Positions 20,648 through 48,645 are shown, numbered from the stretch's first letter. The stretch: 64,000 nt of DNA from an uncultured Candidatus Bathyarchaeia archaeon (GCA_964598845.1 CAZRDM010000005.1:32765-96764); one strand, 5' to 3'. The notes: generated by a model from the sequence alone, not told the origin. Program-made: numbers and translations.

Positions 20648-20672
20648 ACACAGAGCATCCGGATACCCTCAG

Positions 20673-24835: not shown

Positions 24836-24849
24836 CCTCATCTGCTGAC

Positions 24850-26319: not shown

Positions 26320-26346
26320 TCTCGTGAAGGGTTCTCTATGTCTAGC

Positions 26347-26985: not shown

Positions 26986-27019
26986 TGCCTATCCCATTCA
27001 TGTTGCATGTCGTCCGCGT

Positions 27020-27748: not shown

Positions 27749-27973
27749 GTAACTGCGTTTTCAGGCCATTATCGTTAATAGTGTTCAGCCTATTACTACC
27801 ATTACCACTACTTACTATTGCCCAGTTGCCTAGTCGGCTCTTCTACGGCTACCTTTTCTACTCTCAACATCATCATTTTGAAGAAGAACCGTTGAATGAA
27901 TGCACCAAGCGTCAGTCGTGTGCAATGCTTGCGAAGGCAGGTTCTCGATCTCGGCGTGACAAGTAGAGCCTCG

Positions 27974-29835: not shown

Positions 29836-29850
29836 CAGGCTGATTGAAGA

Positions 29851-30468: not shown

Positions 30469-30471
30469 GGG

Positions 30472-32235
30472 TTAGCTCCTGGTCGCTTTCTTGACGTATT
30501 GTGAAATCATCTGTTGGATGACCCTTGGATTCAAACGACCCACAGGGCTCTCCGTCTCAAGAAGCCGCCTAGGGATCCTTTCCTTGGTTAGGTCAAAGTC
30601 CTCTCTGATCTTGAAGTCGTAGAGATTTCGGGAAATCTTCCTTCCAAGCCTCATCAGCCTCCCCACGGTGATGTCTATTCCAACAGCTGCTAATGCTCTA
30701 ACAATGAGTTCCTTCACGTAGACGCTCCGTGTGAAGTAGCATGCGATGAGTGAATGGAGGACGTTCAGCCAATCCTCCTCTTCAATGAGGAAGTCAACGA
30801 TCTGTTCCGGGGTTACTCTCTTCGTCATCCCCGTTTGGTCTATGCTGTACCCTGCGTTACTGAGATGGGAGTGTCTAGCGCCTACCAGTGTTCCGACCAA
30901 GAACCCGTAGCCAGTGAAGTACCCTGCCGGGCTATTCTTTCCAAGTGTGATAGCGAATTCTTCTCCACCATATGCTTCGGCAGCAGCAGCAACCCCTCGC
31001 GCGAGTGTTGCATAGAAGTGGTTCTTGGAATCGGCGATGCTTACGATCATGTCCATGTAAGTTTCAAAATCCCCCCACCCAGGACGGAGCCCCATCGTTT
31101 CATCCGTAGTGATGAATCCCTTTTCGTAGGCTTCAGTCGCCCAGGCCAAGACCGCTCCTGTCATGATGGCATCCAAGCCTAAGTGTTCGCACAATGAAAT
31201 CAGCTGTAAAACTCCCTTCGGATCGCTCACAGCCAGATTCGTCCCAAGTGCGAAAATTGGCTCGTAATTGTATGGTACAAGTTCCATTCCCTTGGATTGC
31301 TCCTCCGTTCCTTGCGGGTCACGTTCGCATTCGGAGGTTATCTTGAGGGTGGCCAAGTGTACACAGGTTACCGGGCATCCTAAACAGGAAATCTTTCGCT
31401 CAAGAAACTCCTGAGCGAACCGTTCCCCCGAGATACTATCAGCGTTCTCGTAGACAGTCTCCGAGAAGTTTCTTGATGGTAGCGCCCTCAACTCGTTCAG
31501 TTCGAGAACATTTGCTGCTGTCCCAAATTCTTGATACTTCTTCATGAAGTCCGTTTTGACGACTCGTTCGTAGATCTCGTTATACACCTGTCTGAAGCTC
31601 TTGGAGTTGACAATTTGTATATCGCCTTTGCCGGAAACGCGGACAGCCTTCAGTTTCTTGCTGCCCATCACTGCGCCTAATCCGAGCCGACCAAAGTGGT
31701 GATAACGGTCGGCTATTGCTCCGCTGTAGTGAACAAGATTCTCGCCTGCACGGCCAATGCTCATCACACTGTGCACGCCTCCGTTCGATGGCTTGATTAA
31801 TCTCTCAACTTGGAGCGGTGATAGCCCCCATAGTGGAGAAGCATCTTCGATGCACGCTTTCCCGTTCTCGATACTGAGCCTAACAGGCTCGTCTGAAGCT
31901 CCCTTGATCACAATAGCTCCGTAACCAGCGAAGCGCAGGGCTGTGGAGAAGCGGCCCCCGGCATGCGACTCGCCCAGGTTGCCTGTCAACGGCGATTTGA
32001 AGACGGCCACAGTCTTCGCCATACTCGGGAAGATTCCGACTAGAGGACCTGTCGTGAAAATAATGGGAGCCTCTGGGGATAATGCGCTGATCCGCGGCTG
32101 GCACTCTTCCAGAAGTAGCTTCGACGCTACCCCTGTGCCTCCCAAGTACTTCGCGAAGAGTTCAGATCGTTTTGTCGCCCTAGCTGTTCTCTCGGTCAGG
32201 TCGACGTAAAGAACTCGTTCGAGGCGCGTGCTCAT
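30472..32235 (-). CDS. aldehyde:ferredoxin oxidoreductase family protein (second copy)
   Basis: 587 aa with AOR N- and C-domains (YLGGTGVASKLLLEE). Confidence 0.9.
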   Translation of the reverse strand: MSTRLERVLYVDLTERTARATKRSELFAKYLGGTGVASKLLLEECQPRISALSPEAPIIFTTGPLVGIFPSMAKTVAVFKSPLTGNLGESHAGGRFSTALRFAGYGAIVIKGASDEPVRLSIENGKACIEDASPLWGLSPLQVERLIKPSNGGVHSVMSIGRAGENLVHYSGAIADRYHHFGRLGLGAVMGSKKLKAVRVSGKGDIQIVNSKSFRQVYNEIYERVVKTDFMKKYQEFGTAANVLELNELRALPSRNFSETVYENADSISGERFAQEFLERKISCLGCPVTCVHLATLKITSECERDPQGTEEQSKGMELVPYNYEPIFALGTNLAVSDPKGVLQLISLCEHLGLDAIMTGAVLAWATEAYEKGFITTDETMGLRPGWGDFETYMDMIVSIADSKNHFYATLARGVAAAAEAYGGEEFAITLGKNSPAGYFTGYGFLVGTLVGARHSHLSNAGYSIDQTGMTKRVTPEQIVDFLIEEEDWLNVLHSLIACYFTRSVYVKELIVRALAAVGIDITVGRLMRLGRKISRNLYDFKIREDFDLTKERIPRRLLETESPVGRLNPRVIQQMISQYVKKATRS

Positions 32236-32257
32236 AGTCTGATCATTTACAGGAACC

Positions 32258-33232
32258 TTACGTGGTCGCCAGTCCCATTGTCTGTTTCAGAAGCTGCCCA
32301 TCAACCTTCCCGGAAGTGTGAGTGACTCCTGTCTTCACATTATTGACAGCAAACATCGCAGGTGCGAAAATGTTAGGGTCAATCTTGTAGAAGTCAAACT
32401 CAGCAGCTTTGAATATCTCATAGAAAGGCTTCCCGTAGTCTTTGGATGTTGATGAAGGAGCCTTATGGACGAGTTCTTTCAGCTTCTCGTCATCCTCGAA
32501 GTCAACTGAGTAGAATGTGACACCGCCATAGGCTATTGCATCATTTGTTCGACCCATAGCCTTGGCCGACTTGGGATGAATCGGAGCTATGGGAGCGTAT
32601 CCACACCCATAGAGAATTCTCCTTGGATCGAAGCCAATCTCAGTAAGCCTATGGATTCCGGTCTCAACAATTCTTCCGGAGATCTGAACGGATCCCGCCA
32701 TTGAAGTCGTGGGCGCTACTAGAACGTGGAGATTCGCTAAAGGGATTTCGCATTCTTTCGCAATATATTCGAGGGCTTCCTTCGTTGGGTACTTGTCAGC
32801 CTCGAGCACAATTACGGCTTTATCCGATTTGTCTTTGTACTCGATCTTCTGGTAGAGTTCTTTTGGTTTGAGAGCGAGGGCGCGAGCTGGGCCGGATCCC
32901 ATAGCGAAGTAGTCGGAGGTCTTTATCTGCCAACCGGCGAACTGTGCTCCCAGAGTCGCGATGGCCGGAAAGTCTGTCTCAACGTGCACGCTTGGCAGTA
33001 CGATGCCGTCGTAGCTCATGTGTGTAATGGAGGCCTTGCCTAAGTCACCCAAGCAGGCCTCCGTCATGAACTTGCCTGCCGAGAAGCCTCCTCGGACCTT
33101 AATGCCTAGGTCGATTATGGTGGCTCCTGTTTCATGTCTCTCTGTGAGTATGCCGAGTTCCTCTGCGTGTTGGATGCCCCATTCCACTAGCTTCGCAGTT
33201 CTCTCGTTGACGCTTACGGGCATCTCCGTCAT
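32258..33232 (-). CDS. mch: methenyl-H4MPT cyclohydrolase
   Basis: Near-colinear match to Mch (TDFPAIATLGAQFAGW, GSGPARALALKP, LVAPTTSMAGSVQISGR, KAMGRTNDA, GKPFYEIFK). The start ATG at 33230-33232 overlaps the fwdC stop (ATGA). Confidence 0.9.
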   Translation of the reverse strand: MTEMPVSVNERTAKLVEWGIQHAEELGILTERHETGATIIDLGIKVRGGFSAGKFMTEACLGDLGKASITHMSYDGIVLPSVHVETDFPAIATLGAQFAGWQIKTSDYFAMGSGPARALALKPKELYQKIEYKDKSDKAVIVLEADKYPTKEALEYIAKECEIPLANLHVLVAPTTSMAGSVQISGRIVETGIHRLTEIGFDPRRILYGCGYAPIAPIHPKSAKAMGRTNDAIAYGGVTFYSVDFEDDEKLKELVHKAPSSTSKDYGKPFYEIFKAAEFDFYKIDPNIFAPAMFAVNNVKTGVTHTSGKVDGQLLKQTMGLATT

Positions 33233-34059
33233 GCCTCCAAATATTTCTCGTACCACTTCAAATGGGGGTTGTTCTTGAGGCTGACCGACAATCTGCCTTT
33301 GCCTTCCTCATTCATGTCTCCCGAGAAAGCATAGAAAGGTCCTGGGACTTTCTCTTCGCCCACCTTGACCTTGTCTTGGATCTGTTCAAAGGAAAAGCTC
33401 GGTAGAATCGACGGGAGTTGGCCGCCTATAATGACCTTGCCGCCCTTCATCTGTGCTCCGGCTCGCCCGTCACAGTTGCCTCCGACGAAGATCGTTCCGT
33501 CGGCCATGTGAATGCCGGGGAAGATTCCAGCGCTACCCTTGATCCTGATCGTTCCATTTGCCATCCAGCATCCCACCTCGTGGCCCGCATTGCCGTGGAT
33601 GATTATCGAGCCGTTCTTCATTCCGAGAGTAGTTCCTCGGTACCCAGCTCCGATGTAGTCGGCGGCGTTGCCTTTGACCTCGATCTGTCCTCCTCTCATT
33701 TTTGTGCCAAGCCAAGAGCCTGCGTTTCCAGAGGCCAAGATTGATCCACCCGACATCTCCTCGCCTAGATACATACCAGCGTTACCATCTACGATCAAAG
33801 ATCCGCCAGACATCTTGTACCCCACCTTCCGGATCTTTGCGGCATCACCAACAATTCTAATGGAAGTCTCATCAGGGCCTTCACCCTTTTTCTCAGCGAC
33901 CTGGAAAATGTCGGCAAGCTCGATCCGCCTGTTTCCTTCCCACGCCTTGGTCGTCTCGATCTGTCTCATCGATTTCTCAGTGAATTTTGTGGGTGAAATT
34001 TCTCGGCAGTCAACAGGGAGCTGGAGGCTTCTTCTGATCGCGAGCACGATCTCTCTCAA
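33229..34059 (-). CDS. fwdC: formylmethanofuran dehydrogenase subunit C
   Basis: Repeated GxxGxxxG beta-helix units (GNAGMYLG, GNAGSWLG, GNAADYIG, GNAGHEVG) as in FwdC/GltB C-terminal domain. Confidence 0.85.
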   Translation of the reverse strand: MREIVLAIRRSLQLPVDCREISPTKFTEKSMRQIETTKAWEGNRRIELADIFQVAEKKGEGPDETSIRIVGDAAKIRKVGYKMSGGSLIVDGNAGMYLGEEMSGGSILASGNAGSWLGTKMRGGQIEVKGNAADYIGAGYRGTTLGMKNGSIIIHGNAGHEVGCWMANGTIRIKGSAGIFPGIHMADGTIFVGGNCDGRAGAQMKGGKVIIGGQLPSILPSFSFEQIQDKVKVGEEKVPGPFYAFSGDMNEEGKGRLSVSLKNNPHLKWYEKYLEA

Positions 34060-34062
34060 CGG

Positions 34063-35760
34063 CTAAACCTCTGCTTTGACGGTGATTCTGCTCGGGTTTG
34101 CCAGCTCGTTATCATCCATTGCGTAGTTGTCCATTTGAACTGTGTAGTAGTCGTCGAAGGTCTTCCTCATCTCGGACTCCACATCTTTCATGAGGCTCTC
34201 AGAAACCTTGCTGTCAACCCAGTAGGTGCGTCCGAGCGGTGCTTCAACTATCTCCCCATTCTTGACTACTATTCTTCCATCCTTGATGGTGAAGGCGGCT
34301 CTCTTCAGGGCCTTCCTGACAAGTCGATAGTCCTTTGAAGGGTCGATCTTTGTCGGGTCTAGGTTGTAGATTGAGACATCAGCATCTGCGCCGATTCCGA
34401 GATGTCCCTTCTGGCGTAGCCCCAAGGCCTTGGCGGTCCCAGCGCGCGTGATTATGACGATCTCGGGGAACGAGTACTCTCTATCTATTCCCGGCAGGTC
34501 GAGCTTCTTCTGCGCTGTCTTGTTGATCCTCCCAACGGACTTCTCTCTTGCTTTCTTGCTCATCAGCCAAGCGATGATTTTTGGATACTTCGTGAACGTG
34601 CCACCATTCGGATGGTCGGTAGTCAGATAGACGCGCCAAGGGTCTTTAACGAGAAGGGCGAGTTCGAGGCCGATGCCCCACTGGATCGCGTTCACGTAAT
34701 TGTTTCGTCTGTACTTGTATGGGACGACGCCCGCTCCCGTCTCGACCTCGACATCGAAGTTCATCCACTTGTTCCCTGAGAGTTGATAGAGCATATATTG
34801 GAAGCCCCCATCAGCTGTCATCGTCGTCGTGTCCATGAATACAACTTGACCCAAGTCGACTGTGACATGGTCGTGCTTGTTCACGTAATCTCCTATCTCA
34901 GGCGCTCCGGAGCCGATATTATGCCATGCCGACCCGCTCCGGCCAGTGAACTGGACATGGGTTATGTGGATTATGGGCTTGTTGTCGTGGGCGAGGTCTC
35001 TGACTGAGTCCATCGTCGCGATGGTTGTCTCGTAGTTTCCAATCTTGGCGAGGTCATTGGTATGTACATGGATTGTGTGCGGGAGTTTCAGGAGCTGATT
35101 GACTTTGCAGATTCCTCGAACGATCTCCTTGGGTGTGATATCGAAGTTCGGGACATGGTCCTTGAGGCCGGTGATGTATCTTCCCCACCTCCAGGCCTCG
35201 ACGCCCCCGGGGTTGACTACCTTTATGGCATATCCCTTGGTTGCCCTAAGCATCCATGACACGTAGGCCGCGCATTCTTCTACACGGCCCTGTGCGAGAT
35301 ATTCCAGCGTTCGCCAATCATTACCGAAGAGTGGGAAACAACCCTTATCCACTATTGGAGTGTCGTCGAGTTCCTCGTGAGTATGCCTTGTCTTCATGAG
35401 AGGTGTGGCTGGCTCGAAGACGGTTGTGTAACCCATTCTTGCATATCGATAACCCGTTGTGAACGTTGAGGGAATCGACTTCCCAGTTCCAGCGCGAGTC
35501 AGCGATGTACGCGTCTCTACATCTTTCTCATGGTCTTCAGGCCTCAGTATCCTACCGGCGTTTACCTTTGACCCTGCTATGTGGGAATGAATATCGACCC
35601 CGCCCGGCATCACCATCATGCCAGAGGCATCGATCACCGTCGCGCTCGCGCCAACGTTCTTCACAATCTTGCCATCTTTGATGTAGATGTCGAGTTTTTC
35701 GCCTTCGATCCCGTTAAGCGGGTCGAAGACGATCCCATTCCTTATGGCCAGTTCACTCAA
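34063..35760 (-). CDS. fwdA: formylmethanofuran dehydrogenase subunit A (amidohydrolase)
   Basis: 565 aa; N-terminal IRNGxVFDPLNGIEGEKxDIxIKDGKI...GGVDIHSH matches FwdA. Confidence 0.9.
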   Translation of the reverse strand: MSELAIRNGIVFDPLNGIEGEKLDIYIKDGKIVKNVGASATVIDASGMMVMPGGVDIHSHIAGSKVNAGRILRPEDHEKDVETRTSLTRAGTGKSIPSTFTTGYRYARMGYTTVFEPATPLMKTRHTHEELDDTPIVDKGCFPLFGNDWRTLEYLAQGRVEECAAYVSWMLRATKGYAIKVVNPGGVEAWRWGRYITGLKDHVPNFDITPKEIVRGICKVNQLLKLPHTIHVHTNDLAKIGNYETTIATMDSVRDLAHDNKPIIHITHVQFTGRSGSAWHNIGSGAPEIGDYVNKHDHVTVDLGQVVFMDTTTMTADGGFQYMLYQLSGNKWMNFDVEVETGAGVVPYKYRRNNYVNAIQWGIGLELALLVKDPWRVYLTTDHPNGGTFTKYPKIIAWLMSKKAREKSVGRINKTAQKKLDLPGIDREYSFPEIVIITRAGTAKALGLRQKGHLGIGADADVSIYNLDPTKIDPSKDYRLVRKALKRAAFTIKDGRIVVKNGEIVEAPLGRTYWVDSKVSESLMKDVESEMRKTFDDYYTVQMDNYAMDDNELANPSRITVKAEV

Positions 35761-37072
35761 GTGTTTGACCTCCCTTCAGCTTCTTCACTTCTCTAAGGAT
35801 ATCGCGAAGGATCTCGACATCGGGTCTTATTCCGGGGGGTGGAGGAACAACAGGTTTCGTCTTTAATGCGACCCCATCCATGCGATATATCGAGCCGCCA
35901 GTTTCGATTCCGACGATTGCTGAGGGAAAGACTACTTCCGATATGAGTCCGGTCGCGGACGGGCGTGGGTCGATTGTGACGATTGGGATCTGCGCCAAAC
36001 GTCTCGTCGCCTCGACGGGAAAGTTGGAAACCGGGTCCGAGGCTACGACGAGAGCGGCGTCAGAATCGCCTCTTGAGAGTATGTCGATTACAGTAGTGTC
36101 GCCGGGGTTGTAGCGTGGGTAGCCTTGGCTCAGATCAACTGCGTAGGGGAATCCTGTCACCCAAGCTGTGACCTGGTTCGCTCCAGCGACATTGTACCAG
36201 CCTCGCATTGGCATTATGAGGAACTTCGTCCGCGCATTGAGATCGCGGACAAGGGAGAGAGCGACGTCGATGTTTCTATGTTTCCCGCTCGTCATGGTGA
36301 GGCCTACGCCGAAGAAGAGGATGCCGAACTCGCAGCTTACCATGAGGTCGGCTATTTCTTCTATTTTGTCGGCAGGTACGCCAGCGATCACATCCTGCTC
36401 CAGTTCGTCTCCTCGAACAGCCATCCTGAAGGCGCATAGGAGGTCGTAATCGCCGTTTGGCGTGATCTGCAGAAAGTGGTCCGCTAGCTTCGCCGTATCG
36501 GTCTTCCGTACGTCCACAACAACGATTTTCCTATCTTTTCTTCCACCGCGGAATCGACCCTTGCGAATTGCCAGACGCTGCATGTGATGGGGATGGGAGT
36601 GGATCGGGTTTGATCCCCAGTAGACTATCAGGTCCGCACGTTGCCTGACTTCCCCGAAGGTGCAGCTCACTTCACCTATGTCGTGCACGCCCAGAAGTGT
36701 TGGACCGTGACATACGGTGGTTGTGTTGTCTATGACTCCGCCGACCCATTCCGTCAGCTCGATGCCGACTTTGGTTGCTTCGCAGCTGGTTGAACTCCAA
36801 CCATACAAGATAGGGTATTTGGCGTTGGCTAGTATCTCTGCAGCTCTAGATACCGCCTGTTGATAGCTCGCTTCGTGAAGTTCTCCATTCTTCTTCATGA
36901 GCGGGGTTAGATGGCGGTCGCGATTGTACTCCATCAATTTCGCTAGCGAGATGGCGCATCCTGAGCGGGAACTCTGGACCTTTCCATTCTCAACAGTGAC
37001 TTGGAGGTCGTCGCATGTGGCCCCGCAGAATGTGCAGATCACGTTCGGTATGACTTCTTTCGTCATTCTCAT
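35753..37072 (-). CDS. fwdB: formylmethanofuran dehydrogenase subunit B (molybdopterin oxidoreductase)
   Basis: 439 aa; N-terminal Cys cluster (CTFCGATCDD) and molybdopterin-oxidoreductase architecture. It overlaps fwdA and fwdD. Confidence 0.85.
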   Translation of the reverse strand: MRMTKEVIPNVICTFCGATCDDLQVTVENGKVQSSRSGCAISLAKLMEYNRDRHLTPLMKKNGELHEASYQQAVSRAAEILANAKYPILYGWSSTSCEATKVGIELTEWVGGVIDNTTTVCHGPTLLGVHDIGEVSCTFGEVRQRADLIVYWGSNPIHSHPHHMQRLAIRKGRFRGGRKDRKIVVVDVRKTDTAKLADHFLQITPNGDYDLLCAFRMAVRGDELEQDVIAGVPADKIEEIADLMVSCEFGILFFGVGLTMTSGKHRNIDVALSLVRDLNARTKFLIMPMRGWYNVAGANQVTAWVTGFPYAVDLSQGYPRYNPGDTTVIDILSRGDSDAALVVASDPVSNFPVEATRRLAQIPIVTIDPRPSATGLISEVVFPSAIVGIETGGSIYRMDGVALKTKPVVPPPPGIRPDVEILRDILREVKKLKGGQTLE

Positions 37073-37467
37073 GTCCTCCGGGTCATCTCTGCGACTAGAT
37101 GTGGCAAGTCTAGGACTTCTTCGTTAGGGGCGGGTGTCACTTCTGCCTCAACCCCTTTGAAAGTTGGCATACCGGTTCCCTGCGTTTCCGAGGAAAGCAC
37201 CATATTGGCCCATGGTCCGTAGGGGATGAATGCAACGCCCCTATGCGGCGCCTGCGATGACGCGACAGCTCTCACAACTACACTTCCAGTACTCGTAGAG
37301 ACCTTGATTTTCTGGTCTGGAGAGATGCCTAATGACTTCATGTCGTCAGGATCAAGTTCGCAGATGGCAACGCTTCGAGCGTACTTGTCTGAGAGTTTTC
37401 CTGAGACCTTGGCTCTGGCTTGACTGAGACTTCGTCCCGATAAAAGGGTCACCCTCAAGCTTAACAT
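37069..37467 (-). CDS. fwdD: formylmethanofuran dehydrogenase subunit D (molybdopterin dinucleotide-binding domain)
   Basis: 132 aa; the FwdD-like sequence VTLLSGRSLSQA...IDPDDMKxLGI; first gene of the fwdDBAC-mch operon. Confidence 0.8.
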   Translation of the reverse strand: MLSLRVTLLSGRSLSQARAKVSGKLSDKYARSVAICELDPDDMKSLGISPDQKIKVSTSTGSVVVRAVASSQAPHRGVAFIPYGPWANMVLSSETQGTGMPTFKGVEAEVTPAPNEEVLDLPHLVAEMTRRT

Positions 37468-37680
37468 GCAGATTCAACCTAAGTGAGGTCACACAACGTA
37501 CACATAATGTTGTGGTGTCAATTTCACTCACTGTAATCGCATCAGGGAGAGTCGTTCGGAACGTCGCCCAATCGAAATCGTAGAACGATATTTGTTGCCC
37601 TCGTATCTGTCCTAGCAGCTCTCCACATCGTTCTCTCAATTCCGCTCGGCCCTGTCGGGTTTAGACGTTTCAGCATAGTC

Positions 37681-38280
37681 ATGGAGCCGCTTGAGGGAAT
37701 CATTGGAGGACCACTATACGGTTCGGTCGCCGCCATCATTGGATGGATTGGAGGAAGATTCATGCGCCCAGAAACCTTCTACATCGAGAACTTCTTCGGG
37801 TTAGCAGAGGCGATAGGAGCGCTTGGGGCTGGTCTTCTTATCAGGAAACGTTGGTGGGCTGTATCGATCCTCTATGGTGTCCTTCTAGTCGCATTTCTAG
37901 TTCATCCTTTCGCGAGGGCAGTTCCGCTCTGGACTCTCTGGGACACGTATCTTGGATTCGCCGCAATATTTCCTGCCGCAATTGCTGTTAAGAAAATGGA
38001 CATAAAGAATCTGGATTCAAAAGTTTTACTAGCCGTGGTGGCTCTCGTCACCTTCGTAGCCGTTGAGCTGGACGCGATGGCGAGGATCTTCATGCTGGCC
38101 GATCTGGGGCTTTATGAGACGTATGGAATTCCTTTGGATGCTTGGTCCACGATATTCATCGCAGGCGCCTTTCAAACCCCGGTCGAGAGCGTCTACAGCG
38201 TAGCAATAGCCTCAATGGTGGGAGTGCCGGTCCTAATCGCTCTTAGGGTCGCAAGGATCTTGGATTGGCCGCTCTCCTAG
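37681..38280 (+). CDS. polytopic membrane protein, paralog family member 2
   Basis: 199 aa; a paralog of the 27020 ORF; divergently transcribed from fwdD. Confidence 0.55.
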   Translation: MEPLEGIIGGPLYGSVAAIIGWIGGRFMRPETFYIENFFGLAEAIGALGAGLLIRKRWWAVSILYGVLLVAFLVHPFARAVPLWTLWDTYLGFAAIFPAAIAVKKMDIKNLDSKVLLAVVALVTFVAVELDAMARIFMLADLGLYETYGIPLDAWSTIFIAGAFQTPVESVYSVAIASMVGVPVLIALRVARILDWPLS

Positions 38281-38301
38281 CGAGAGATGGAGCCTTAGAT
38301 T

Positions 38302-39147
38302 CTAAGCCTCCCCGGGTCTTCTAGGTTTCTCTATCAATCTTTGCTTCGAGAGTATTGTGCCGTCGTCGTGGTGAGGCATCCTGACGACTCGGTCTTCCGC
38401 CTTATCCATCTCTCTAGCTTCGTCTGCTAGTCTAGATGCTTCTCTCATCATTTCATGGGCTGCTGCAACAAGCTGCGTGTAGCGTTCCCATTCCTTCACA
38501 ACGAAGCATCCTTCAACGGTGAGGTCGGCAACTCTCTTGGCGATCTCGTGGGCGGCCATGGCTTTGGTTTTCGCGTATGGGTTGTTTAGGGCCGAATATG
38601 CAACCGCTTTCTCCTTGTCGATCACAATTTTCGGTAGAGTCAGCGCCTCACCTTTCGCGATCGTTTGAACGAGCTTGTCGATCTCCTGCCAGAGGAGATT
38701 GAACACTCCGGTGACAGTGAGGACTTTCATAAGATCTGTGTTGAAGAGAGCCATCTCGGCTGGGTCCAAGAATTCCCTTCTCGCGCCAATCATCGCGTCA
38801 GCCTCGACGATCATATATCCCGCCCCTAGCTTCTCGATATCTTGAACCGCCTTCTTAGCAGGGCCGTCGGAGACAACAACAGTCGGAATCTTCCCACCCG
38901 TCAAAATCTCACGCAACTTGGTCGGACCTGGAAGTCCAGCGTTCGGGCTTGTGACGACGGCAAGGTGAGGTTTGAACTCAAGCAATTTCTGAGCGACTTC
39001 CGTGGCCTGCTCGACTCCCATCTTCGCACCGCTCCCGACGACTCGCACGTCTATGTCCTTCCGATCCGCGCGCTCGTCCAAGAGGAATTCAAGGAGAGGA
39101 GCCGCGCCGATGTTCCCTAATTTGCCAAAACCTACCTTCACAACCAA
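38302..39147 (-). CDS. mtd: F420-dependent methylene-H4MPT dehydrogenase
   Basis: A near-colinear match to Mtd over the full length (MVVKxG..KxGNIG, LLDERADR, IDVRVVGSGAKM, MIGARREFLDP, NPYAKxKAMAAxEIAxxVAD, VASAHEM). TTG start. Confidence 0.9.
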   Translation of the reverse strand: MVVKVGFGKLGNIGAAPLLEFLLDERADRKDIDVRVVGSGAKMGVEQATEVAQKLLEFKPHLAVVTSPNAGLPGPTKLREILTGGKIPTVVVSDGPAKKAVQDIEKLGAGYMIVEADAMIGARREFLDPAEMALFNTDLMKVLTVTGVFNLLWQEIDKLVQTIAKGEALTLPKIVIDKEKAVAYSALNNPYAKTKAMAAHEIAKRVADLTVEGCFVVKEWERYTQLVAAAHEMMREASRLADEAREMDKAEDRVVRMPHHDDGTILSKQRLIEKPRRPGEA

Positions 39148-39299
39148 AGTACTTTCACCGCTTCCACCTACGCTCTTGACTTGGCGTATAACGCTTGCCG
39201 CGATATGATACTTACAATATGTACGAAGATTTTCGAATTAGATTCGATTTACGAAATCATCTTAAGCAGACCATTCCGCATTGGCGCGGAGACAGAGCA
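39148..39299. promoter_or_regulatory. AT-rich divergent intergenic region between mtd (-) and ftr (+), a candidate bidirectional promoter
   Basis: A short AT-rich spacer (gatacttacaatatgtacg..., atttacgaaat) lies between two divergently oriented C1-pathway genes. Confidence 0.3.
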
Positions 39300-40199
39300 T
39301 TGTCCAGTGGAGTTGAAATCGAGGACACATTCGCTGAAGCCTTTCCAATGGTCGCCGCGAGGATTTTGATAACGGCCGATAACGAGAAATGGGCGTTGAC
39401 CGCGGCTAGGACTGCCACGGGATTCGCATCATCGATTATTATGTCGCCAGCCGAAGCTGGGGTTGAAGGATCTATCGTTCCTCCAGAGAAGACGCCCGAT
39501 GGAAGACCGGGTGTGCACCTACAGATATACCACAGGACTCGTACCGAGCTCAAACGGCAGATGATTGCTAGGATGGGGCAGTGCATACTGACCTGCCCTA
39601 CCACCGCAGCCTTCGACGCAATGCCAGATGCGAAACGCCGCTTGAGAGTCGGATGGGCTATCCGGATGTTCGGCGACGGCTACGAAAAGAGAGACAACCT
39701 CAACGGAAGGAGGATTTGGCGTATCCCAGTTATGGAAGGCGAATTCGTAACGGAGAGTCGGTTCGGTGTTCGCAGATGTGTGGCCGGCGGGAACTTCATC
39801 ATAATGGCCGATAACCAGAAAACGGGTTTGCAGGCGGCTGAGAATGCTGTACAAGCCATGAACAAGGTCGAAGGTGTTGTACTCACCTTTCCGGGGGGCA
39901 TATGTAGATCGGGCTCCAAAGTGGGGTCGATGAAATACAAGCTCCCGGCAACCACGAATCACCTCTTCTGCCCCAAGCTTCGAGAAACAGCAGCTGGATC
40001 CCTCGTTCCCGAAGGGGTGGGAAGCGTCTATGAACTCGTCTTCAATGGACTCAATTTCGACACTGTCAAGCGAGGAACGGCCGAGGGGATACGCGCCGCG
40101 GTAGCCGTACCAGGTGTTAAGAAGATCACTGCCGTAAACTTCGGAGGAAAGCTCGGACCATATCAGATTAAGCTCAAAGAGGCATTAACAACAGCATAG
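39195..40199 (+). CDS. ftr: formylmethanofuran:H4MPT N-formyltransferase
   Basis: Near-colinear match to Ftr (GVEIEDTFAEAF, TATGF, PDGRPGV, GQCxLTxPT, FDAMP, FGDGY, GRRIWRIPVMEGEF, AGGNF, GLQAAExAV, NFGGKLG). The true start is probably internal (TTG near 39300) rather than the ORF-track TTG at 39195. Confidence 0.9.
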   Translation: MPRYDTYNMYEDFRIRFDLRNHLKQTIPHWRGDRALSSGVEIEDTFAEAFPMVAARILITADNEKWALTAARTATGFASSIIMSPAEAGVEGSIVPPEKTPDGRPGVHLQIYHRTRTELKRQMIARMGQCILTCPTTAAFDAMPDAKRRLRVGWAIRMFGDGYEKRDNLNGRRIWRIPVMEGEFVTESRFGVRRCVAGGNFIIMADNQKTGLQAAENAVQAMNKVEGVVLTFPGGICRSGSKVGSMKYKLPATTNHLFCPKLRETAAGSLVPEGVGSVYELVFNGLNFDTVKRGTAEGIRAAVAVPGVKKITAVNFGGKLGPYQIKLKEALTTA

Positions 40200-41264
40200 A
40201 TCTTTATCCATGAACAGTTTCAAGAAGTCATACCCACGCGCCTGAGGCGACCCGACAAGGATTCGTTGATATTTCAGACGTCCTGATCGGTCCAAGACAT
40301 CCTCGAGTTTTCCTCTGATTACCAACCATTCTCCGCTCTCAGCGATATCCGCGTAGAGTCCCTCGAAGCTGACCACCTTGTGGACCTTGTTGAACTTGCC
40401 CGAGCCTTGAAGCTGAACACAGTCCACGAGATAAATCGACGGAAGGAAATATGAATCCGTAGTATCGACAACCTTGGCTCTTGCTTCAACAATCCCATGG
40501 GACTTGTAGACTTCATCACCGTAGCGCTCGCTAACTTCCTCCTCGGTCTTCGTCGGATGTATCGAGAAGATTGTGTTCTTGAAGACTCCCTTGTTCCACT
40601 TCCTTGAATAGAGCATTCTAGCCTCGTTCAAAGTCAAGGGATGAACCGTGGACATCTCTCTGCACCATCTCGAGAGTCTCGTACCCTGAAGCTTCTGGAC
40701 TGCGCCCCTTGCGTACAGTCGGAGCAATGCCTCCTTGATCTTCCGGCTCTCATCACGGCCATACACAACCAAGTCTATGTCACTAAAGCTCACGTTGTGG
40801 ACATCTAGCAAGATTGATCCTGTGATTCCAAGACTATCCAGAGAAATTCCGCTATCATCACAAAGGAGGGAAGCCAGTTCAACAGCCTTCTTTTCAAGAT
40901 TGTCCAAATCATCGGTCCTGAAGAGGTCCTTCAAGCGTTCGTCTGGTCGATAGTGTTTCGCGATTCTTTCCAGCGGAACCGCGAAGAAGGTCATGCGAAG
41001 CGGTTCAGATCGAAAGAGGTACTCGGGGTATCGTCCACGCAGGAACTCTATCTGCTTCATCACATTTGACGCTGAGTAATACCTGACTAACCTTCTGTAC
41101 CTCCTCCTGCCCTTCCCCCATTTTCCGCGGTGGCTCGGCACGTACTTCGGGAAAGCGAAAACTCGGTCGTTGGGGTGAACGTTGCCTATGACAGCGAAGA
41201 ATAGGCCGTCGATAGTTTCAATGTAGTCGCGGTCTCTAAAACCTCTACTCACTCTTTCCAACAA
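40185..41264 (-). CDS. nucleotidyltransferase-fold protein of unknown function (paralog A)
   Basis: 359 aa. A Pol-beta-type NTase motif G-x-x-GS...SDIDLVVYG sits at about residues 135-170, behind a roughly 130-aa N-terminal domain. It is a tandem paralog of the next gene, with similar motif order. Confidence 0.6.
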   Translation of the reverse strand: MLERVSRGFRDRDYIETIDGLFFAVIGNVHPNDRVFAFPKYVPSHRGKWGKGRRRYRRLVRYYSASNVMKQIEFLRGRYPEYLFRSEPLRMTFFAVPLERIAKHYRPDERLKDLFRTDDLDNLEKKAVELASLLCDDSGISLDSLGITGSILLDVHNVSFSDIDLVVYGRDESRKIKEALLRLYARGAVQKLQGTRLSRWCREMSTVHPLTLNEARMLYSRKWNKGVFKNTIFSIHPTKTEEEVSERYGDEVYKSHGIVEARAKVVDTTDSYFLPSIYLVDCVQLQGSGKFNKVHKVVSFEGLYADIAESGEWLVIRGKLEDVLDRSGRLKYQRILVGSPQARGYDFLKLFMDKDLCCC

Positions 41265-42276
41265 CCGTTAGGAAGTCACGTGGATCCTCGCCGATTACCA
41301 ACCTATGCGTTTCACCGCGCTTTTCAACAACCTTCTCCAAAGTCCCCTTCGCAAGAATACGCTCTCCAATGAGTGCCTGCTCGCAAAATCTGCCCCTAAA
41401 GGAAACTATCTGAGAGGGAGGCTTAATCGCTGCGCCTCCAGTTAACTCAACGTGTAAGATCTGATAAGTAGAGGGAGTGAAGATTGACTCGGAGTCATCC
41501 ACGATCGTCGCGCTCAGGGTGGCCATGCCAATGGGATAGTACTTCCTATCACCATATTCCTCATGCAGTTCGTCCCATTCCTTGACGCAACGTATGAAGT
41601 ACTGCGTACCCCTGAAGGTTCCTTGCAGAACCTTCGACTGCTCATGTCTGACGAACGTCTCGAATGATATTGCAGACGCTAGACTCCTCTGCTTGTACAG
41701 TTTGCGCAGATCGCTCGCACCGCACGGACTAAACCCTTCTGAACGGGTTTCGAGAAGCGACTTCAGTCTTGCATGAGTCTGGCGAGAGGCCTCGGTGCCA
41801 TAAAGGACCAAGTCTATGTCGGATTCCGCAGCGTGGAGGCCGACGAGGATCGAGCCCGAGACCCCAATTTTGGAGGAGGAGATTCCAGTTTGATTCGTCA
41901 GAGTTTCCACCATACCGATGGCGAGTCGCTCCTGCGGATCAAGGTCAGCTTTCTGCCTGAGCTCTGCGTATCTCTCTGTTGGGATGCAGTGCGACTTGAC
42001 ATTATCCAGAGGAACGGCCTGCACTTCCCTATTGAACACAGGGCACCTGTAGAGGTAGTGTGGCCATCTCCTCGCAAGGAGATAGGCACGTGCATCGAGG
42101 TCGTAGACCTTTCGATACTTGATTCCGTTTCTTTGCCTAGTTCCGCGTCCGTCGGGAAGGTATCTGAGATATGCTATGACTCGATCGGGAGGATGAAGAA
42201 ATCCCTTTACATCAAAGATCAGTCCCTCGACGGTTTCGATGAAGTCTCCTTCCCGAGCTTTGACTTTCCAAGTCAT
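41245..42276 (-). CDS. nucleotidyltransferase-fold protein of unknown function (paralog B)
   Basis: 343 aa with the GVSGSILVGLHAAESDIDLVLYG NTase motif; N- and C-regions align with paralog A (FIETVEGLIFDV vs YIETIDGLFFAV). Confidence 0.6.
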   Translation of the reverse strand: MTWKVKAREGDFIETVEGLIFDVKGFLHPPDRVIAYLRYLPDGRGTRQRNGIKYRKVYDLDARAYLLARRWPHYLYRCPVFNREVQAVPLDNVKSHCIPTERYAELRQKADLDPQERLAIGMVETLTNQTGISSSKIGVSGSILVGLHAAESDIDLVLYGTEASRQTHARLKSLLETRSEGFSPCGASDLRKLYKQRSLASAISFETFVRHEQSKVLQGTFRGTQYFIRCVKEWDELHEEYGDRKYYPIGMATLSATIVDDSESIFTPSTYQILHVELTGGAAIKPPSQIVSFRGRFCEQALIGERILAKGTLEKVVEKRGETHRLVIGEDPRDFLTVVGKSE

Positions 42277-42316
42277 TATGAAGGATCCGCCTACCCATCT
42301 AGAGAACTTCAGGCCA

Positions 42317-43195
42317 CTATCGGCGCGCCTTCGATAAGACGTACTGTGCTATCTGATCGGCAATACTGACCTTCGTGGTGCTCTGAAGTCCTCGCCAGCC
42401 CGGCTGAGAATTGACCTCGTTTACGAGAAGGCCTGCATCACTCTCCATAATGTCCACGCCGGCGATTTCGCAGCCGATCGCGCTTGCCGCATCAAGAGCA
42501 AGCTTCTCTGTTTCTGCAACCAGATCTGCCTTGACAGAGGCTGCGCCTTGGCTCACGTTCGTCTTCCAAGACTCAGCAACCCTGTACATCGCAGCCACAG
42601 CCCTCCCGCCGATGACGAAGATTCTCATGTCCCTTTTCCCATGGGGGACAAATTCCTGAACGTAGATGACGTGCCGATAGAAACGAAGCGTTCTGAAGAC
42701 TCTCTCTGCCACATCGGTATCTGAGATCTTGGCTGCGCCTATTCCTCTTGAACCGAAAATAGGTTTCACGATGGCTTCACCGCCGAAGGCCTTGAAGGCC
42801 TTCAAAGCCTCAGACACGCTCTCGGTGATAACGGTCCTCGGGATTGAGATTCCATTTTCATTCAAGATCGTGAGGGCGTAGTACTTGTCAACAGCTTTCT
42901 CTATGGCGGATGGATGATTGATCACAGGTAGGCCCATCCTCCAGAGCTTGTGCAACATGTCCATTTGAAAGATCACTTCATCCAACGAACCCCGTCCTAT
43001 CGGCCGAACAAGCAAGGCGCCAAGATCCCTGATGAGATCAAGATTCTCGAAGGAGATCTGAGGCTCCATGTTTATTCGCGCTGCGATGTCGGTGAAACTC
43101 AATGCGACGGGGTCTGCCCCGTTTCGACGAAAAGCCTGAAGGAGTCTGGAGGAACACCAAGCATCTTGGTTCCTTGTCAGGAGACCGATCTTCAA
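42317..43195 (-). CDS. RimK-family ATP-grasp ligase (H4MPT:alpha-L-glutamate ligase MptN / F420 alpha-glutamyl ligase CofF-like)
   Basis: 292 aa. The N-terminus (MKIGLLTRNQDAW), ATP-grasp core, and C-terminal VNEVNSQPG are typical of the RimK/LysX family. Confidence 0.75.
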   Translation of the reverse strand: MKIGLLTRNQDAWCSSRLLQAFRRNGADPVALSFTDIAARINMEPQISFENLDLIRDLGALLVRPIGRGSLDEVIFQMDMLHKLWRMGLPVINHPSAIEKAVDKYYALTILNENGISIPRTVITESVSEALKAFKAFGGEAIVKPIFGSRGIGAAKISDTDVAERVFRTLRFYRHVIYVQEFVPHGKRDMRIFVIGGRAVAAMYRVAESWKTNVSQGAASVKADLVAETEKLALDAASAIGCEIAGVDIMESDAGLLVNEVNSQPGWRGLQSTTKVSIADQIAQYVLSKARR

Positions 43196-43295
43196 AACTT
43201 GGACATCTCGCAGGAGGCATACCCGCTAACAGCCGAAAATAAAAGCTAGGCGGCCTCTAATCACGGCAGATAGTACCTAGAGCTTCGAGTTCAAA

Positions 43296-44135
43296 TTGCA
43301 CTTCAACGCGAGACGAATTAGGACAAGGTATTGGAGACCGGGGGACGACTTCGTGAAGATCATCCTCGAGTCTATTGCGAGTGAGTGTCAGGACGGCGAC
43401 ATCGTGGTGGTTTCTGAGAAGGCAATCTCAGTAGCTCTGGGCCGAGTCGTGGATGAAGCTCTGATTCGGCCGAGTTTCTTAGCTAAGGTTCTTGCCAGGA
43501 TTTGGACGAGACTGGGGTGGGGCTATTTTCTTGGACCGTTGTGCCGTTTAAGAGACAAGACTCTTTGGCGGTTGAGACGGTATCCTATCCCTCAAGGTGA
43601 GGTTCACAAGCAAGTGGCATTGCAATATGCGGGGTTTGGACAGGCGCTGCTTCACTATTCCGAAGGAGGAATAGATGTCACAAATCTTCCGTATGCCCTT
43701 GTCTCATTACCTCTGAACAACCCTGACGGTGTCGGCCAGAATATTCGCAAAGCGATTCAGGAAGTCTTGGGCAAGCAAGTTACTGTGATGATCACTGATA
43801 CCGACAAGACCTACAGCCGAAAAGGAACGCACCTTACTCCGAGACCTGGCGCTGTGAGAGGCGTTAGGTCACTGGGAATAGTCGCGTTCATCCTAGGTAG
43901 GACGCTTCGGTGGACTGCTCGAGCCACCCCATTAACAGTAGACGGAGCGTCATTTTCACTTGAGGAGGCTCTTTCGGCGGCCGAAGCGGCTGATAGAGCG
44001 AGAGGACATGGCGCGGGACGAACGGCTTGGGATATGGCGAGAAGGTTCCGTGTCGAACTCACAGGAATAACATGGGAGATGCTAGACTCGATAGGCCATT
44101 ATCCTATCGTGTTAGTAAGAAAGTTGAATGAGTAA
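43296..44135 (+). CDS. CofE-like (F420-0:gamma-glutamyl ligase family) protein
   Basis: The DGDIVVVSEKAISVALGRVVD motif is characteristic of the CofE family; divergently transcribed from the ATP-grasp gene. Confidence 0.65.
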   Translation: MHFNARRIRTRYWRPGDDFVKIILESIASECQDGDIVVVSEKAISVALGRVVDEALIRPSFLAKVLARIWTRLGWGYFLGPLCRLRDKTLWRLRRYPIPQGEVHKQVALQYAGFGQALLHYSEGGIDVTNLPYALVSLPLNNPDGVGQNIRKAIQEVLGKQVTVMITDTDKTYSRKGTHLTPRPGAVRGVRSLGIVAFILGRTLRWTARATPLTVDGASFSLEEALSAAEAADRARGHGAGRTAWDMARRFRVELTGITWEMLDSIGHYPIVLVRKLNE

Positions 44136-44138
44136 TGC

Positions 44139-45092
44139 TCAGGGCTTGTAGCCTGATAGGGTTGCCAGTGCTAGAACCGAAGCTGTTATGTCCGCTGTGG
44201 AGCCCGGGTTGAGTAGGTGCCTGTTCATTCTGAGTTCTTCGTCGAGAAGTTCGATCTCTCTTCGTCCCGCTTTTGTGCTCGCTCCACCAAGTGCAAGCGT
44301 CTTTTTGGCGCGGTTACAAGTCCACCTAGCCTTGTCGATGTCAGCCTTGCGTGCGATTAAGGTATCAGGTATCTCCGAGAGAATCTTAAGATACGTGTTG
44401 ACCGTAGCCTCATTAACATCCCCCGTTCTCGCCAATTCCTTGCTGAAGTATGGATAACCAAGCTCGCAAGTAACCTTGTAATCAGTCGTCCACTCCCTGC
44501 AGATCGAATCCCAGTCAGCCGCCAAACGAAATATCTCGAGAAGCGTGAATCTTTCGTCTAGTATCCTCCGCCTTGATGACGGATCCAATGCGTCTAGTTG
44601 TGGTGCTCTTCCAAGGCCACCGGGCTTCCCATAAGTGATCGCCTCGTAGAAAGCTATTGAATCAGCCACTGTTGTTGATCTAAGTACTCTCCGTAGATTG
44701 CGCCTAAGACGGGAACGTGAGAGATGGCGCCCGGTGAATGTCATGCCTGCTGCAACAGCAAGCGGTACGAGCAGAGTCAGAGTTCCAAGACTGGTGTTCC
44801 CGCCTCTCTGCGAATGCATTATGCTAATGACCGCGTCCCGGATTGCGGCTCCAACCTCTGCATGTTGAACAGAGATCTTCTTCCTCGAGATGAGTATCCC
44901 TCTCTTGGCAGCTCTTTCGAAGTAGGACCTTGACGCTACTGCAGATGCGAGAAAGTGTTCGTATGTGGTTTCTGAGTAGTCACGGGTTCTGTGAACATTC
45001 CCGGGCTTTGGGTATGCGCTCACTTCGAGGAGCATGGCGAGTTCAAGGCGACCTGAAATTTCGCTTGCGATGTCTGATGGAGATTGCGGCAA
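44139..45092 (-). CDS. triphosphoribosyl-dephospho-CoA synthase (CitG/MdcB) family protein
   Basis: The N-terminal LLEVSAYPKPGNV motif matches the CitG family (ALxExxLxPKPGLVD); about 317 aa. Confidence 0.7.
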   Translation of the reverse strand: MPQSPSDIASEISGRLELAMLLEVSAYPKPGNVHRTRDYSETTYEHFLASAVASRSYFERAAKRGILISRKKISVQHAEVGAAIRDAVISIMHSQRGGNTSLGTLTLLVPLAVAAGMTFTGRHLSRSRLRRNLRRVLRSTTVADSIAFYEAITYGKPGGLGRAPQLDALDPSSRRRILDERFTLLEIFRLAADWDSICREWTTDYKVTCELGYPYFSKELARTGDVNEATVNTYLKILSEIPDTLIARKADIDKARWTCNRAKKTLALGGASTKAGRREIELLDEELRMNRHLLNPGSTADITASVLALATLSGYKP

Positions 45093-45374: not shown

Positions 45375-45791
45375 ATGAGAATCAAACGCGGCTACATACT
45401 AGGAGCGATTATACTGCTCTCGGTGGCAACCTTCTACGCGCATCCGTTAGAACGTGCATCTCCTCTTTACCCTTGACTTCACATCATGGCGATGATCCTT
45501 GCGCTCTCGCCCATCGCCGGTTTGACACGCAACTGGTTTGCATCCACAGAGCTCAGGAAGACGACCTCGAATGTCTTGGTGGCTGCTTTCGTCGGGACGC
45601 TAACTCATCATGCCTTCGGCAGCGCGTTGAGCATCTGGTATTTCTCTCCCACGCTGACGCCTGCCAGATGGAATCTGATAATGTATGTCTACCCCGTAGA
45701 GAGGCTGGTTACAGTTGCTATCGTAACGATCATTGGCGCCCCAGTCTACCATCGCCTCAAGCTCTCACGAATCTTTGGGAGACTCAACTGA
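45375..45791 (+). pseudogene. degraded third paralog of the 27020/37681 membrane-protein family (N-terminal half missing, in-frame TGA at 45474..45476)
   Basis: The short ORF MRIKRGYILGAIILLSVATFYAHPLERASPLYP* continues in frame into ORF 45486..45791. The combined product aligns with the C-terminal half of the 37681 protein (FLVHPFARAVPLW ~ FYAHPLERASPLYP; PVESVYSVAIASMVGVPV ~ PVERLVTVAIVTIIGAPV). Confidence 0.4.
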
Positions 45792-47772: not shown

Positions 47773-48645
47773 ATGTGGCCATCGCAAGTCAACACAGGCA
47801 GGCTTCAGATTCAACCAGACTTGAGTCAGGACGACACAGGGGTTCTCGTCACTCCTCTAGAGAAACGTCTCCAAGCATACGACCGATTTCAGGAATTACT
47901 TGCCCGAGGCAAATCGACACATGAAATGGTGTGCACAATTTCGAAACGCTTCGGAGTCAGCCAAAGCACTGTCTATGCTTGGACAAAGGGCAGGTCGCCT
48001 TTCGGAAAGAGATGCGGAAGAATCACCCACGCTGAAGAACTGTTCTACGTCATAGGCGCTCTGCTAGGTGATGGATGCATCTACCTCTGGAGGAATCAAT
48101 ACTACGTCTGGCTCCTCGGCGAGAGAGAATTCTGCCTGAAGTATGCAGAGAAGATAGCTTGGTGTACGAGCAAAACAAAGGCCAAAACATATACATATCG
48201 AGGTAGAAACGTTTGGTTTGTCAAGTTTCAGAACGCCGAACTTTACTTTCTAATGAGGCGAGTACGTCAAGATTTCAACGTCCTTTCGAACTTGATTAGA
48301 CGCGGAGATCGTTTGGCCAATTCTTTACAGCTCATAGAAGGGTTCTTTGACGCCGAGGGATGTGTTAAGGTGATCAAGGAGAAAGTCAGAAGGACTCCTA
48401 AGATAAATCTCGATTTCAGTAACACCGACCTCAACCTCCTTGAGCTCGTTAGAAGAGAGTTGAAGTATGCACTCGGTATAGAAGGGCGGTTTACTTCTCA
48501 CAGAGATTTGAAGTCGAATAGGAAGGTGGCGTACCATCTACGAATATACCGGAAGGATGCTATTGGGAAATTTCTGTCAAACGTGAGCACGATAAAGCTG
48601 AAGCCCGAAAAAGTGCACTATGTGGAAAACTGGCTAAGAAAATAA
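47773..48645 (+). CDS. LAGLIDADG-family homing endonuclease-like protein with N-terminal HTH
   Basis: Two LAGLIDADG motifs (YVIGALLGDGCIY and IEGFFDAEGCV) plus an N-terminal HTH (ISKRFGVSQSTVYAWTKG); free-standing. Confidence 0.8.
   Translation: MWPSQVNTGRLQIQPDLSQDDTGVLVTPLEKRLQAYDRFQELLARGKSTHEMVCTISKRFGVSQSTVYAWTKGRSPFGKRCGRITHAEELFYVIGALLGDGCIYLWRNQYYVWLLGEREFCLKYAEKIAWCTSKTKAKTYTYRGRNVWFVKFQNAELYFLMRRVRQDFNVLSNLIRRGDRLANSLQLIEGFFDAEGCVKVIKEKVRRTPKINLDFSNTDLNLLELVRRELKYALGIEGRFTSHRDLKSNRKVAYHLRIYRKDAIGKFLSNVSTIKLKPEKVHYVENWLRK

Follow-up and report, generated by a model that had tools for sequence, protein, structure and literature searches.

A three-domain nucleotidyltransferase family linked to CitG-like genes: candidate enzymes for late steps of methanopterin side-chain assembly

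A stretch of 64,000 nucleotides from an uncultured Candidatus Bathyarchaeia archaeon (GCA_964598845.1 CAZRDM010000005.1:32765-96764), referred to below in its full length as the window, carries an island of one-carbon (C1) genes followed by a block of five further genes. The subject of this study is the pair of nucleotidyltransferase (NTase) genes in that block, NTase-A and NTase-B, together with the CitG-like gene of the same block and their possible role in assembling the side chain of methanopterin. The window is an archaeal fragment and has its greatest likeness to Bathyarchaeia. Its C1 genes span positions 23936-40199, and beyond position 45996 come an aminotransferase gene and housekeeping genes, so that the five-gene block forms the edge of the C1 island and is not, as the first-pass annotation of this DNA had it, wedged within the island; the five open reading frames (ORFs) which that annotation placed at 40185-45092 were all found there (Table 1). 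The RimK-like, NTase-B and NTase-A genes are co-directional, with a gap of 40 bp between the first two and an overlap of 20 bp between the last two, and are therefore probably read as one transcript; the 3' ends of NTase-A and ftr overlap by 15 bp.

The two NTases are true paralogs, as had been claimed, with 32% identity over 332 amino acids (aa; E 7e-54). Both carry the motif G[ST]GS...SDIDLVxYG, earlier read as a Pol-beta-type signature, in the form GITGS...SDIDL in NTase-A and GVSGS...SDIDL in NTase-B, and they have two features of the Pol-beta-type NTase superfamily (PF01909), namely an hG[GS] motif followed by the metal-binding Dx[DE], and the alpha/beta NTase core fold. The PF01909 model itself scores the window paralogs at 19.5 and 16.5 bits, just under its gathering threshold of 21 (the match in NTase-A covers residues 135-182), and is matched by 27 of the 44 aligned family members with a best E of 9e-10, the match being confined to the NTase core. 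Over both clades in this 44-sequence alignment H28, Y39, G138, G141, D153, P268, G311 and G329 are invariant, S142 and D155 are kept in at least 90% of the sequences, and the almost invariant E236 is a candidate for the third catalytic carboxylate, which the superfamily carries on a neighbouring strand; none of the four clades of the family, A to D, has lost the NTase motif. An AlphaFold2 model made with the same alignment is very confident (pLDDT 95.3) and predicts a beta-rich N-terminal domain (N-domain), a Pol-beta NTase core with a helical insert of about 50 aa, and a C-terminal OB-fold. The unassigned, conserved N-terminal domain that had been noticed before is thus real, at a length of about 110 rather than 130 aa. 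In structure comparisons, the core comes closest to poly(A)/TUTase-type enzymes and the OB-fold to SSB, RPA and the anticodon-binding domains of aminoacyl-tRNA synthetases (aaRS), the N-domain bears a weak resemblance to Sm/KOW barrels, and the chain as a whole gave no fold match. From other Pol-beta NTases (PF01909; GLD2/TUTases, poly(A) polymerase, Pol X, DncV and AadA/KNT) the two proteins differ in their unique N-domain, the helical insert and the C-terminal OB-fold.

Table 1. Features of the window and of related loci, with positions in the window unless a locus (L number) is given
Feature	Position	Strand	Description
NTase-A	40185-41264	-	359 aa; paralog of NTase-B, same three-domain layout
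Catalytic NTase motif of NTase-A	40758..40829	-	GITGSILLDVHNVSFSDIDLVVYG, residues 146-169
NTase-B	41245-42276	-	343 aa; N-domain, Pol-beta NTase core, OB-fold
N-terminal domain of NTase-B	41947..42276	-	residues 1-110; invariant His28, near-invariant Pro29 (HP motif), invariant Tyr39
Catalytic NTase motif of NTase-B	41797..41865	-	GVSGSILVGLHAAESDIDLVLYG, residues 138-160
C-terminal OB-fold of NTase-B	41254..41544	-	residues ~245-341
RimK-family alpha-L-glutamate ligase (MptN/MyfB-like)	42317-43195	-	PF08443 E 2e-33
CofE-like putative gamma-glutamyl ligase (F420_ligase family)	43296-44135	+	PF01996 80.9 bits (cut-off 25), E 1e-22
CitG-like protein (triphosphoribosyl-dephospho-CoA synthase family)	44139-45092	-	PF01874 250.7 bits, E 2.8e-74
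MtrH	23936-24835		C1 island
MttB homologs and Mer-like genes			C1 island
Mch	32258-33256		C1 island
FwdC, FwdA, FwdB, FwdD	33229-37467		C1 island
Mtd	38302-39147		C1 island
Ftr	39195-40199		C1 island; five-gene block comes directly after
ECF-transporter S-component-like protein	37681-38280	+	membrane protein
ECF-transporter S-component-like protein	27020-27748	-	membrane protein
Possible S-component relic	~45486-45791	+	short; just upstream of the CitG-like gene
Ornithine cyclodeaminase/mu-crystallin	20640-21659	+	in-frame TAG at 21093-21095
LAGLIDADG-type homing-endonuclease-like ORF	47773-48645	+	free-standing; PF14528 E 3e-10
DUF1464 (PF07318) genes	L086:8829-9926, L087:1416-2510, L089:1-975, L090:5317-6402		in NTase-bearing methanopterin operons

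NTase-A and NTase-B represent an uncharacterised family of three-domain NTases, structurally novel in its architecture and in its N-domain. No NCBIfam model matches either protein, Pfam has no entry for the whole protein, and searches of PDB sequences with single proteins and with profiles gave no match. The family comprises 2493 clusters at 90% identity and, with E < 1e-3, 1021 clusters at 50% identity. MJ1086 of Methanocaldococcus jannaschii (Q58486, 'uncharacterized protein') is a full-length member, which places the family in a classical methanogen making tetrahydromethanopterin (H4MPT); it scores 334 bits against the family hidden Markov model, is about 32% identical to NTase-A and to NTase-B, and has a precomputed PF01909 match. 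Its neighbour MJ1085 (L091:8475-10004) is a highly charged, repeat-like protein of 509 aa with no Pfam match, and an overlap of 4 bp between its gene and the start of MJ1086 makes co-transcription of the two probable; MJ1085 was considered as a hidden second paralog and rejected, as it is unrelated to the NTase family. Orthologs of the A-type were found in loci of Chloroflexota, Helarchaeota and Vulcanisaeta, and because A- and B-types can be told apart in Chloroflexota and Asgard archaea, the A/B duplication must be old, with both copies retained. In many Bathyarchaeia two more tandem paralogs, clades C and D, adjoin NTase-B (L024:11014-13115, L051:11022-13111 and about 30 other loci); they share 25-30% identity with A and B, have both the HP and the G-x-GS...SDID motif intact, and are absent from the window. 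A distant full-length branch is found on 22 Streptomyces plasmids, e.g., L094:7052-8023 on the Streptomyces anulatus plasmid NZ_CP109388.1 (hhalign probability 99.8, E 4e-29), in a cassette that also holds an aminoglycoside-phosphotransferase (APH)-family kinase, a hypothetical protein and a class I S-adenosylmethionine-dependent methyltransferase. Two contigs with bacterial labels, L005 ('Deltaproteobacteria bacterium'; B-type gene 64% identical, A-type 57%, archaeal-type ftr 81%) and L077 ('Krumholzibacteriaceae'; B-type gene 44% identical to that of the window), are probably mis-binned Bathyarchaeia.

A genome scan with the clade-B alignment, over one genome per GTDB species, returned 561 relatives, and neighbours were counted at the best 80 of these after mapping the window proteins onto the loci; nearly all 80 are from Bathyarchaeia, and Methanomethylicia, Baldrarchaeota and Geothermarchaeales are also present. 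NTase-B has a CitG-like gene no more than 5 kb away at 56 of the 80 loci, or 28 of the 37 that have at least 5 kb on both sides, and another member of the NTase family within the same distance at 51. The CitG-like gene is directly upstream of NTase-B, on the same strand and at most 150 bp away, at 15 loci, and a C1 enzyme gene occurs within 10 kb at 36. At least four distinct gene orders are seen, which means that the linkage of NTase and CitG-like genes is not one inherited arrangement; in a metagenome-assembled genome from Methanomethylicia, the CitG-like gene followed by NTase-B makes up an isolated two-gene module adjoining succinyl-CoA synthetase. Of the NTase clades, that of NTase-B has the closest linkage to CitG-like genes. 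The CitG-like protein is a divergent subfamily: PF01874 covers residues 16-309 of its 317, but the best score against the CitG and MdcB equivalogs, 68.8 bits, is far below the cut-off of 280, and E. coli CitG gives only a local match of 49 aa. A membrane protein resembling the S-component of energy-coupling factor (ECF) transporters recurs in these islands (also at L051:9235-9996 and L003:8293-9904), standing between the CitG-like and NTase-B genes in many Bathyarchaeia (PF07155 E 2e-9 for the L051 copy), and the window has two such paralogs and a possible relic; the protein may transport a pterin or cofactor precursor.

The tie of the NTase genes to CitG-like genes and to genes of the pterin branch of methanopterin biosynthesis, which the first-pass annotation drew from synteny and fold-level motifs, is specific and recurs in Bathyarchaeia, Methanomethylicia, Baldrarchaeota, Thermoproteales, Helarchaeota and Chloroflexota. 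In Chloroflexota, both paralog types lie inside a methanopterin operon of bacterial type, in the order Mch, RimK, DUF1464, CitG, HPPK/GCHY-1, PTPS, NTase-B, flavoprotein, MptH-like, DUF447, RFAP synthase and NTase-A at L087, which L084 and L086 resemble. The order at the Helarchaeota (Asgard) locus L090 is RFAP synthase, DUF1464, MptH-like, MptA, NTase-B and NTase-A. In the cultured Vulcanisaeta sp. JCM 14467, the A-type NTase gene overlaps the start of the CitG-like gene, and the island around this pair contains MptA, MptE-like, Ftr, Fwd, Mch, RimK, MfnB, MfnE, MfnF, Fae and SHMT. Comparative genomics across several phyla gives good support to linking the NTase family with CitG-like genes and with methanopterin biosynthesis. 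DUF1464 recurs in NTase-bearing methanopterin operons of Chloroflexota, Vulcanisaeta and Helarchaeota, DUF447 and the flavoprotein recur in L084 and L087 of Chloroflexota, and DUF447 is found in L086 as well; all three are candidates for further unassigned steps.

A contrast is provided by Proteobacteria, where mch was found on 36 plasmids or chromids and, on several of these, a CitG-like gene lies 1.3-2 kb from it. One of these is a Phyllobacterium plasmid, on which the genes of the island run in the order RFAP synthase, ATP-grasp, mch, RimK, CitG-like, fae, HisA/F-like, hydantoinase-like, flavoprotein, DHNA and MfnB, and in Methylomonas DH-1 the mch, glutamate ligase and CitG-like genes stand together. 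At the level of these 36 mch-bearing replicons, tblastn found no member of the NTase family, and the same run detected the far more distant Streptomyces homologs. Methylotrophic Proteobacteria make dephospho-H4MPT, which is without the phosphate and the alpha-hydroxyglutarate (PMC8141765). As these replicons of dephospho-H4MPT makers keep the CitG-like gene and lack the NTase, the former would track the alpha-ribosyl unit that is common to both groups and the latter the phosphate-hydroxyglutarate unit that is present only in full H4MPT. The absence of the NTase from proteobacterial replicons with mch and CitG-like genes is, in turn, a prediction of the phosphate-hydroxyglutarate step proposed below.

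The two glutamyl-ligase genes of the block had also been taken to point to the methanopterin side chain, and this reading is weakened. Like MptN and MyfB, the RimK-like protein is a RimK-type ATP-grasp enzyme with MptN_Meth (NF040720) as its best NCBIfam match, but its 265.8 bits are under the cut-off of 350 for that model, and it passes the RimK subfamily model TIGR00768 (205.5 bits vs. 143.4). The CofE-like protein diverges from true CofE, with 60.3 bits against the equivalog TIGR01916 (cut-off 180.65), and its gene adjoins CitG in L001, L003, L004, L006 and other loci. The MptN homolog of methylotrophs, Orf5/MyfB, lengthens the polyglutamate chain of methylofuran, and for archaeal methanofuran the ligases of the additional gamma-glutamates have yet to be identified (PMC8141765). 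Because the methylotroph homolog acts on methylofuran, homology alone does not assign a substrate to the RimK-like protein. Within 5 kb of NTase-B, the RimK-like gene occurs at only 5 and the CofE-like gene at only 10 of the 80 loci, and both were downgraded as methanopterin markers on the evidence of PMC8141765.

What was observed here, namely the genes present and their paralogy, the fold, the conserved catalytic motif, the synteny and the phyletic distribution, makes it likely that the NTase family acts in methanopterin side-chain assembly with the CitG-like enzyme. The substrates, the order of the steps and the division of labour between A and B are what we infer beyond these data. From ATP, CitG forms an alpha-glycosidic 5''-triphosphoribosyl adduct and sets adenine free, CitX and MdcG pass this adduct on to a hydroxyl in a step that liberates pyrophosphate (PPi), and H4MPT carries an alpha-(1''->5')-ribofuranosyl-5''-phosphate esterified to (S)-2-hydroxyglutarate. 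In the scheme that we prefer, the CitG-like enzyme would use ATP as the ribosyl donor, the 5'-OH of the aminophenyl-ribitol-pterin intermediate displacing adenine, and its product would have an alpha-(1''->5') ribosyl linkage bearing a 5''-triphosphate, as CitG produces with dephospho-CoA. The NTase would then bind this adduct as a pseudo-NTP (nucleoside triphosphate) in its G[ST]GS...SDIDL site, where the 2-OH of (S)-2-hydroxyglutarate would attack the alpha-phosphate to give PPi and the H4MPT phosphodiester in one step, i.e., the logic of CitX and MdcG applied to a free cofactor. NTase-A and NTase-B might be subunits of one hetero-oligomer or perform two transfers one after the other, with NTase-B as the tighter partner of the CitG-like enzyme. 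We give a probability of about 0.5 to the reading that the NTase family and the CitG-like enzyme act in late side-chain steps of methanopterin-type cofactors by such a triphosphoribosyl, PPi-releasing mechanism. The exact chemistry, in which the NTase joins the triphosphoribosyl adduct to hydroxyglutarate with loss of PPi, is drawn by analogy and put forward more tentatively, at somewhat under even odds.

The likeness to the CitG/CitX and MdcB/MdcG systems lies in the pairing of a CitG-family gene, often in one operon, with a second transferase gene, and the proposed chemistry would match theirs in taking the triphosphoribosyl unit from ATP, in the attack by a hydroxyl and in the release of PPi. 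The partner, however, is here a three-domain NTase of 340-360 aa in place of the 183-aa CitX, and the proposed acceptor and product are a small molecule and a free cofactor, respectively, whereas CitX and MdcG act on a serine of an acyl carrier protein (ACP). No genes for ACP, citrate lyase (CitDEF) or malonate decarboxylase (Mdc) were found in the window or in the annotated related loci.

Several observations weigh against this reading. Comparison with E. coli CitX by hhalign gave a probability of 0.3, i.e., no detectable sequence relation, and the Pfam models of CitX and MdcG (PF03802/PF10620) did not match the family proteins at E up to 0.1; direct homology is ruled out by the former value, and the NTase family is at best an analog of CitX, not a member of its family. 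The analogy needs one transferase, and there are two paralogs with intact catalytic motifs (A and B), and in many Bathyarchaeia four (A-D). MJ1086 does not adjoin methanopterin genes, tandem NTase pairs in the archaeal loci L085 and L096 have no C1 genes within 9-10 kb, and the Streptomyces plasmid hosts of the distant branch are not known as H4MPT makers. Together, the Streptomyces branch and the C1-free archaeal pairs touch in part on what the first-pass annotation had named as grounds for giving up its proposal, a family widespread in genomes without H4MPT and CitG-like genes. The proteobacterial absence has been established for replicons and not for whole genomes, and the two ligases, RimK-like and CofE-like, may instead belong to methanofuran synthesis. 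In the predicted structure, the OB-fold most resembles nucleic-acid-binding OB folds and, with the small-barrel N-domain, leaves room for a nucleic-acid substrate. Finally, the published pathway scheme (White 1996) reportedly takes the ribosyl group from phosphoribosyl pyrophosphate (PRPP), and ATP is required in it to add hydroxyglutarate to a monophosphate intermediate.

Such a scheme would favour nucleotidyl activation within the same pathway, in which the NTase would condense a phosphate monoester (the 5''-phospho-alpha-ribosyl intermediate or 2-phospho-hydroxyglutarate) with an NTP to an intermediate linked to a nucleoside diphosphate, from which a hydroxyl would then displace the nucleoside monophosphate. 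The second paralog might perform the second step, and an activate-and-transfer route of this kind would suit the two conserved paralogs and explain the need for both. The APH-family kinase beside the Streptomyces homolog is reminiscent of kinase-plus-NTase pairs such as LicA/LicC and AmgK/MurU, and CofC/CofD in F420 synthesis likewise go through a nucleotide-activated intermediate to join a cofactor core to a 2-hydroxy acid by a phosphodiester; CofC and LicC, however, have MobA/GlmU-type folds and not the Pol-beta type. The dephospho-H4MPT of methylotrophs could be the direct type of precursor for this route, which fits the absence of the family from proteobacterial replicons. Yet the tightest and most widespread neighbour of the NTase genes is CitG and not a kinase, no kinase or CofD-like gene is conserved beside the archaeal NTase genes, and further activation would be redundant because the CitG-type product already carries an activated triphosphate. 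We consider this route, the main rival, unlikely.

Two further explanations move the NTases out of the methanopterin pathway. 'Archaeal-like' C1 clusters mix methanopterin with methanofuran or methylofuran genes, and several presumed H4MPT genes have proved to be methylofuran genes (PMC8141765), which would allow the NTases to act on another C1 cofactor of the same islands, e.g., on the methanofuran side chain, or in a lineage-specific decoration. The NTase genes are indeed near MfnB, MfnE, MfnF and MfnD-like genes in the Vulcanisaeta and L084 loci, and the neighbouring ligases could be the glutamyl ligases of methanofuran, but at L087 and L090 the NTases stand among pterin genes only (MptA, PTPS, MptH-like, RFAP synthase), and proteobacterial islands that make methylofuran are without the family. 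Methanofuran reportedly also has neither a ribose nor a phosphodiester on which a CitG/NTase pair could act, and we regard such a role as quite improbable. The likenesses of the OB-fold, core and N-domain to nucleic-acid-binding or -modifying proteins, as well as the members outside any C1 context (L085, L096, MJ1086) and in Streptomyces, would also be compatible with an NTase directed at nucleic acids or proteins, for example a modifier of RNA or tRNA 3' ends or bases, the C1 synteny then being regulatory or incidental. This appears highly improbable in view of the operon-level linkage to CitG-like and pterin genes over several phyla and in at least four gene orders. The NTase genes have neither a HEPN gene nor another toxin-antitoxin partner beside them; a toxin-antitoxin or defence (MNT) NTase is rejected on the three-domain size of 343-359 aa, on the cofactor-gene neighbours and because PADLOC defence-system models did not match the window proteins.

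Two features of the window lie apart from these questions. A single in-frame TAG interrupts the ornithine cyclodeaminase/mu-crystallin gene; it falls in the GAGxQ nucleotide-binding motif where glutamine (CAG) is expected (...VIGAGT*GRFQ...), and the simplest explanation is a nonsense mutation or an error of assembly. The LAGLIDADG-type ORF is flanked by the aminotransferase and a superoxide dismutase-like gene.

Methanopterin is the central carrier of C1 units in methanogenesis, anaerobic methane oxidation, the archaeal Wood-Ljungdahl pathway and bacterial formaldehyde oxidation, and to our knowledge no enzyme has ever been assigned to the attachment of the alpha-ribosyl-5-phosphate or of the hydroxyglutarate to its side chain. 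Searches of the full-text literature with methanopterin, CitG and NTase terms returned nothing that ties these steps to a nucleotidyltransferase or to CitG chemistry, and no paper was found on MJ1086. The analysis defines a new three-domain NTase family, previously without structural or functional annotation, and offers a specific, falsifiable reaction scheme for the methanopterin side chain along with concrete, clonable candidates, MJ1086 from a model methanogen and one from a cultured crenarchaeon. The family is at the same time a phyletic marker that may separate producers of full H4MPT from those of dephospho-H4MPT. It is possible, although we lean slightly the other way, that the CitG-like enzyme and the NTase family represented by MJ1086 are the missing enzymes adding the alpha-ribosyl-5-phosphate and the hydroxyglutarate, with ATP and not PRPP as the donor, and that the clade C/D pairs make further phosphodiester-linked cofactor variants. 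If this is true, the formation of a triphosphoribosyl adduct followed by its PPi-releasing transfer, known only for the prosthetic groups of proteins, would build a free coenzyme.

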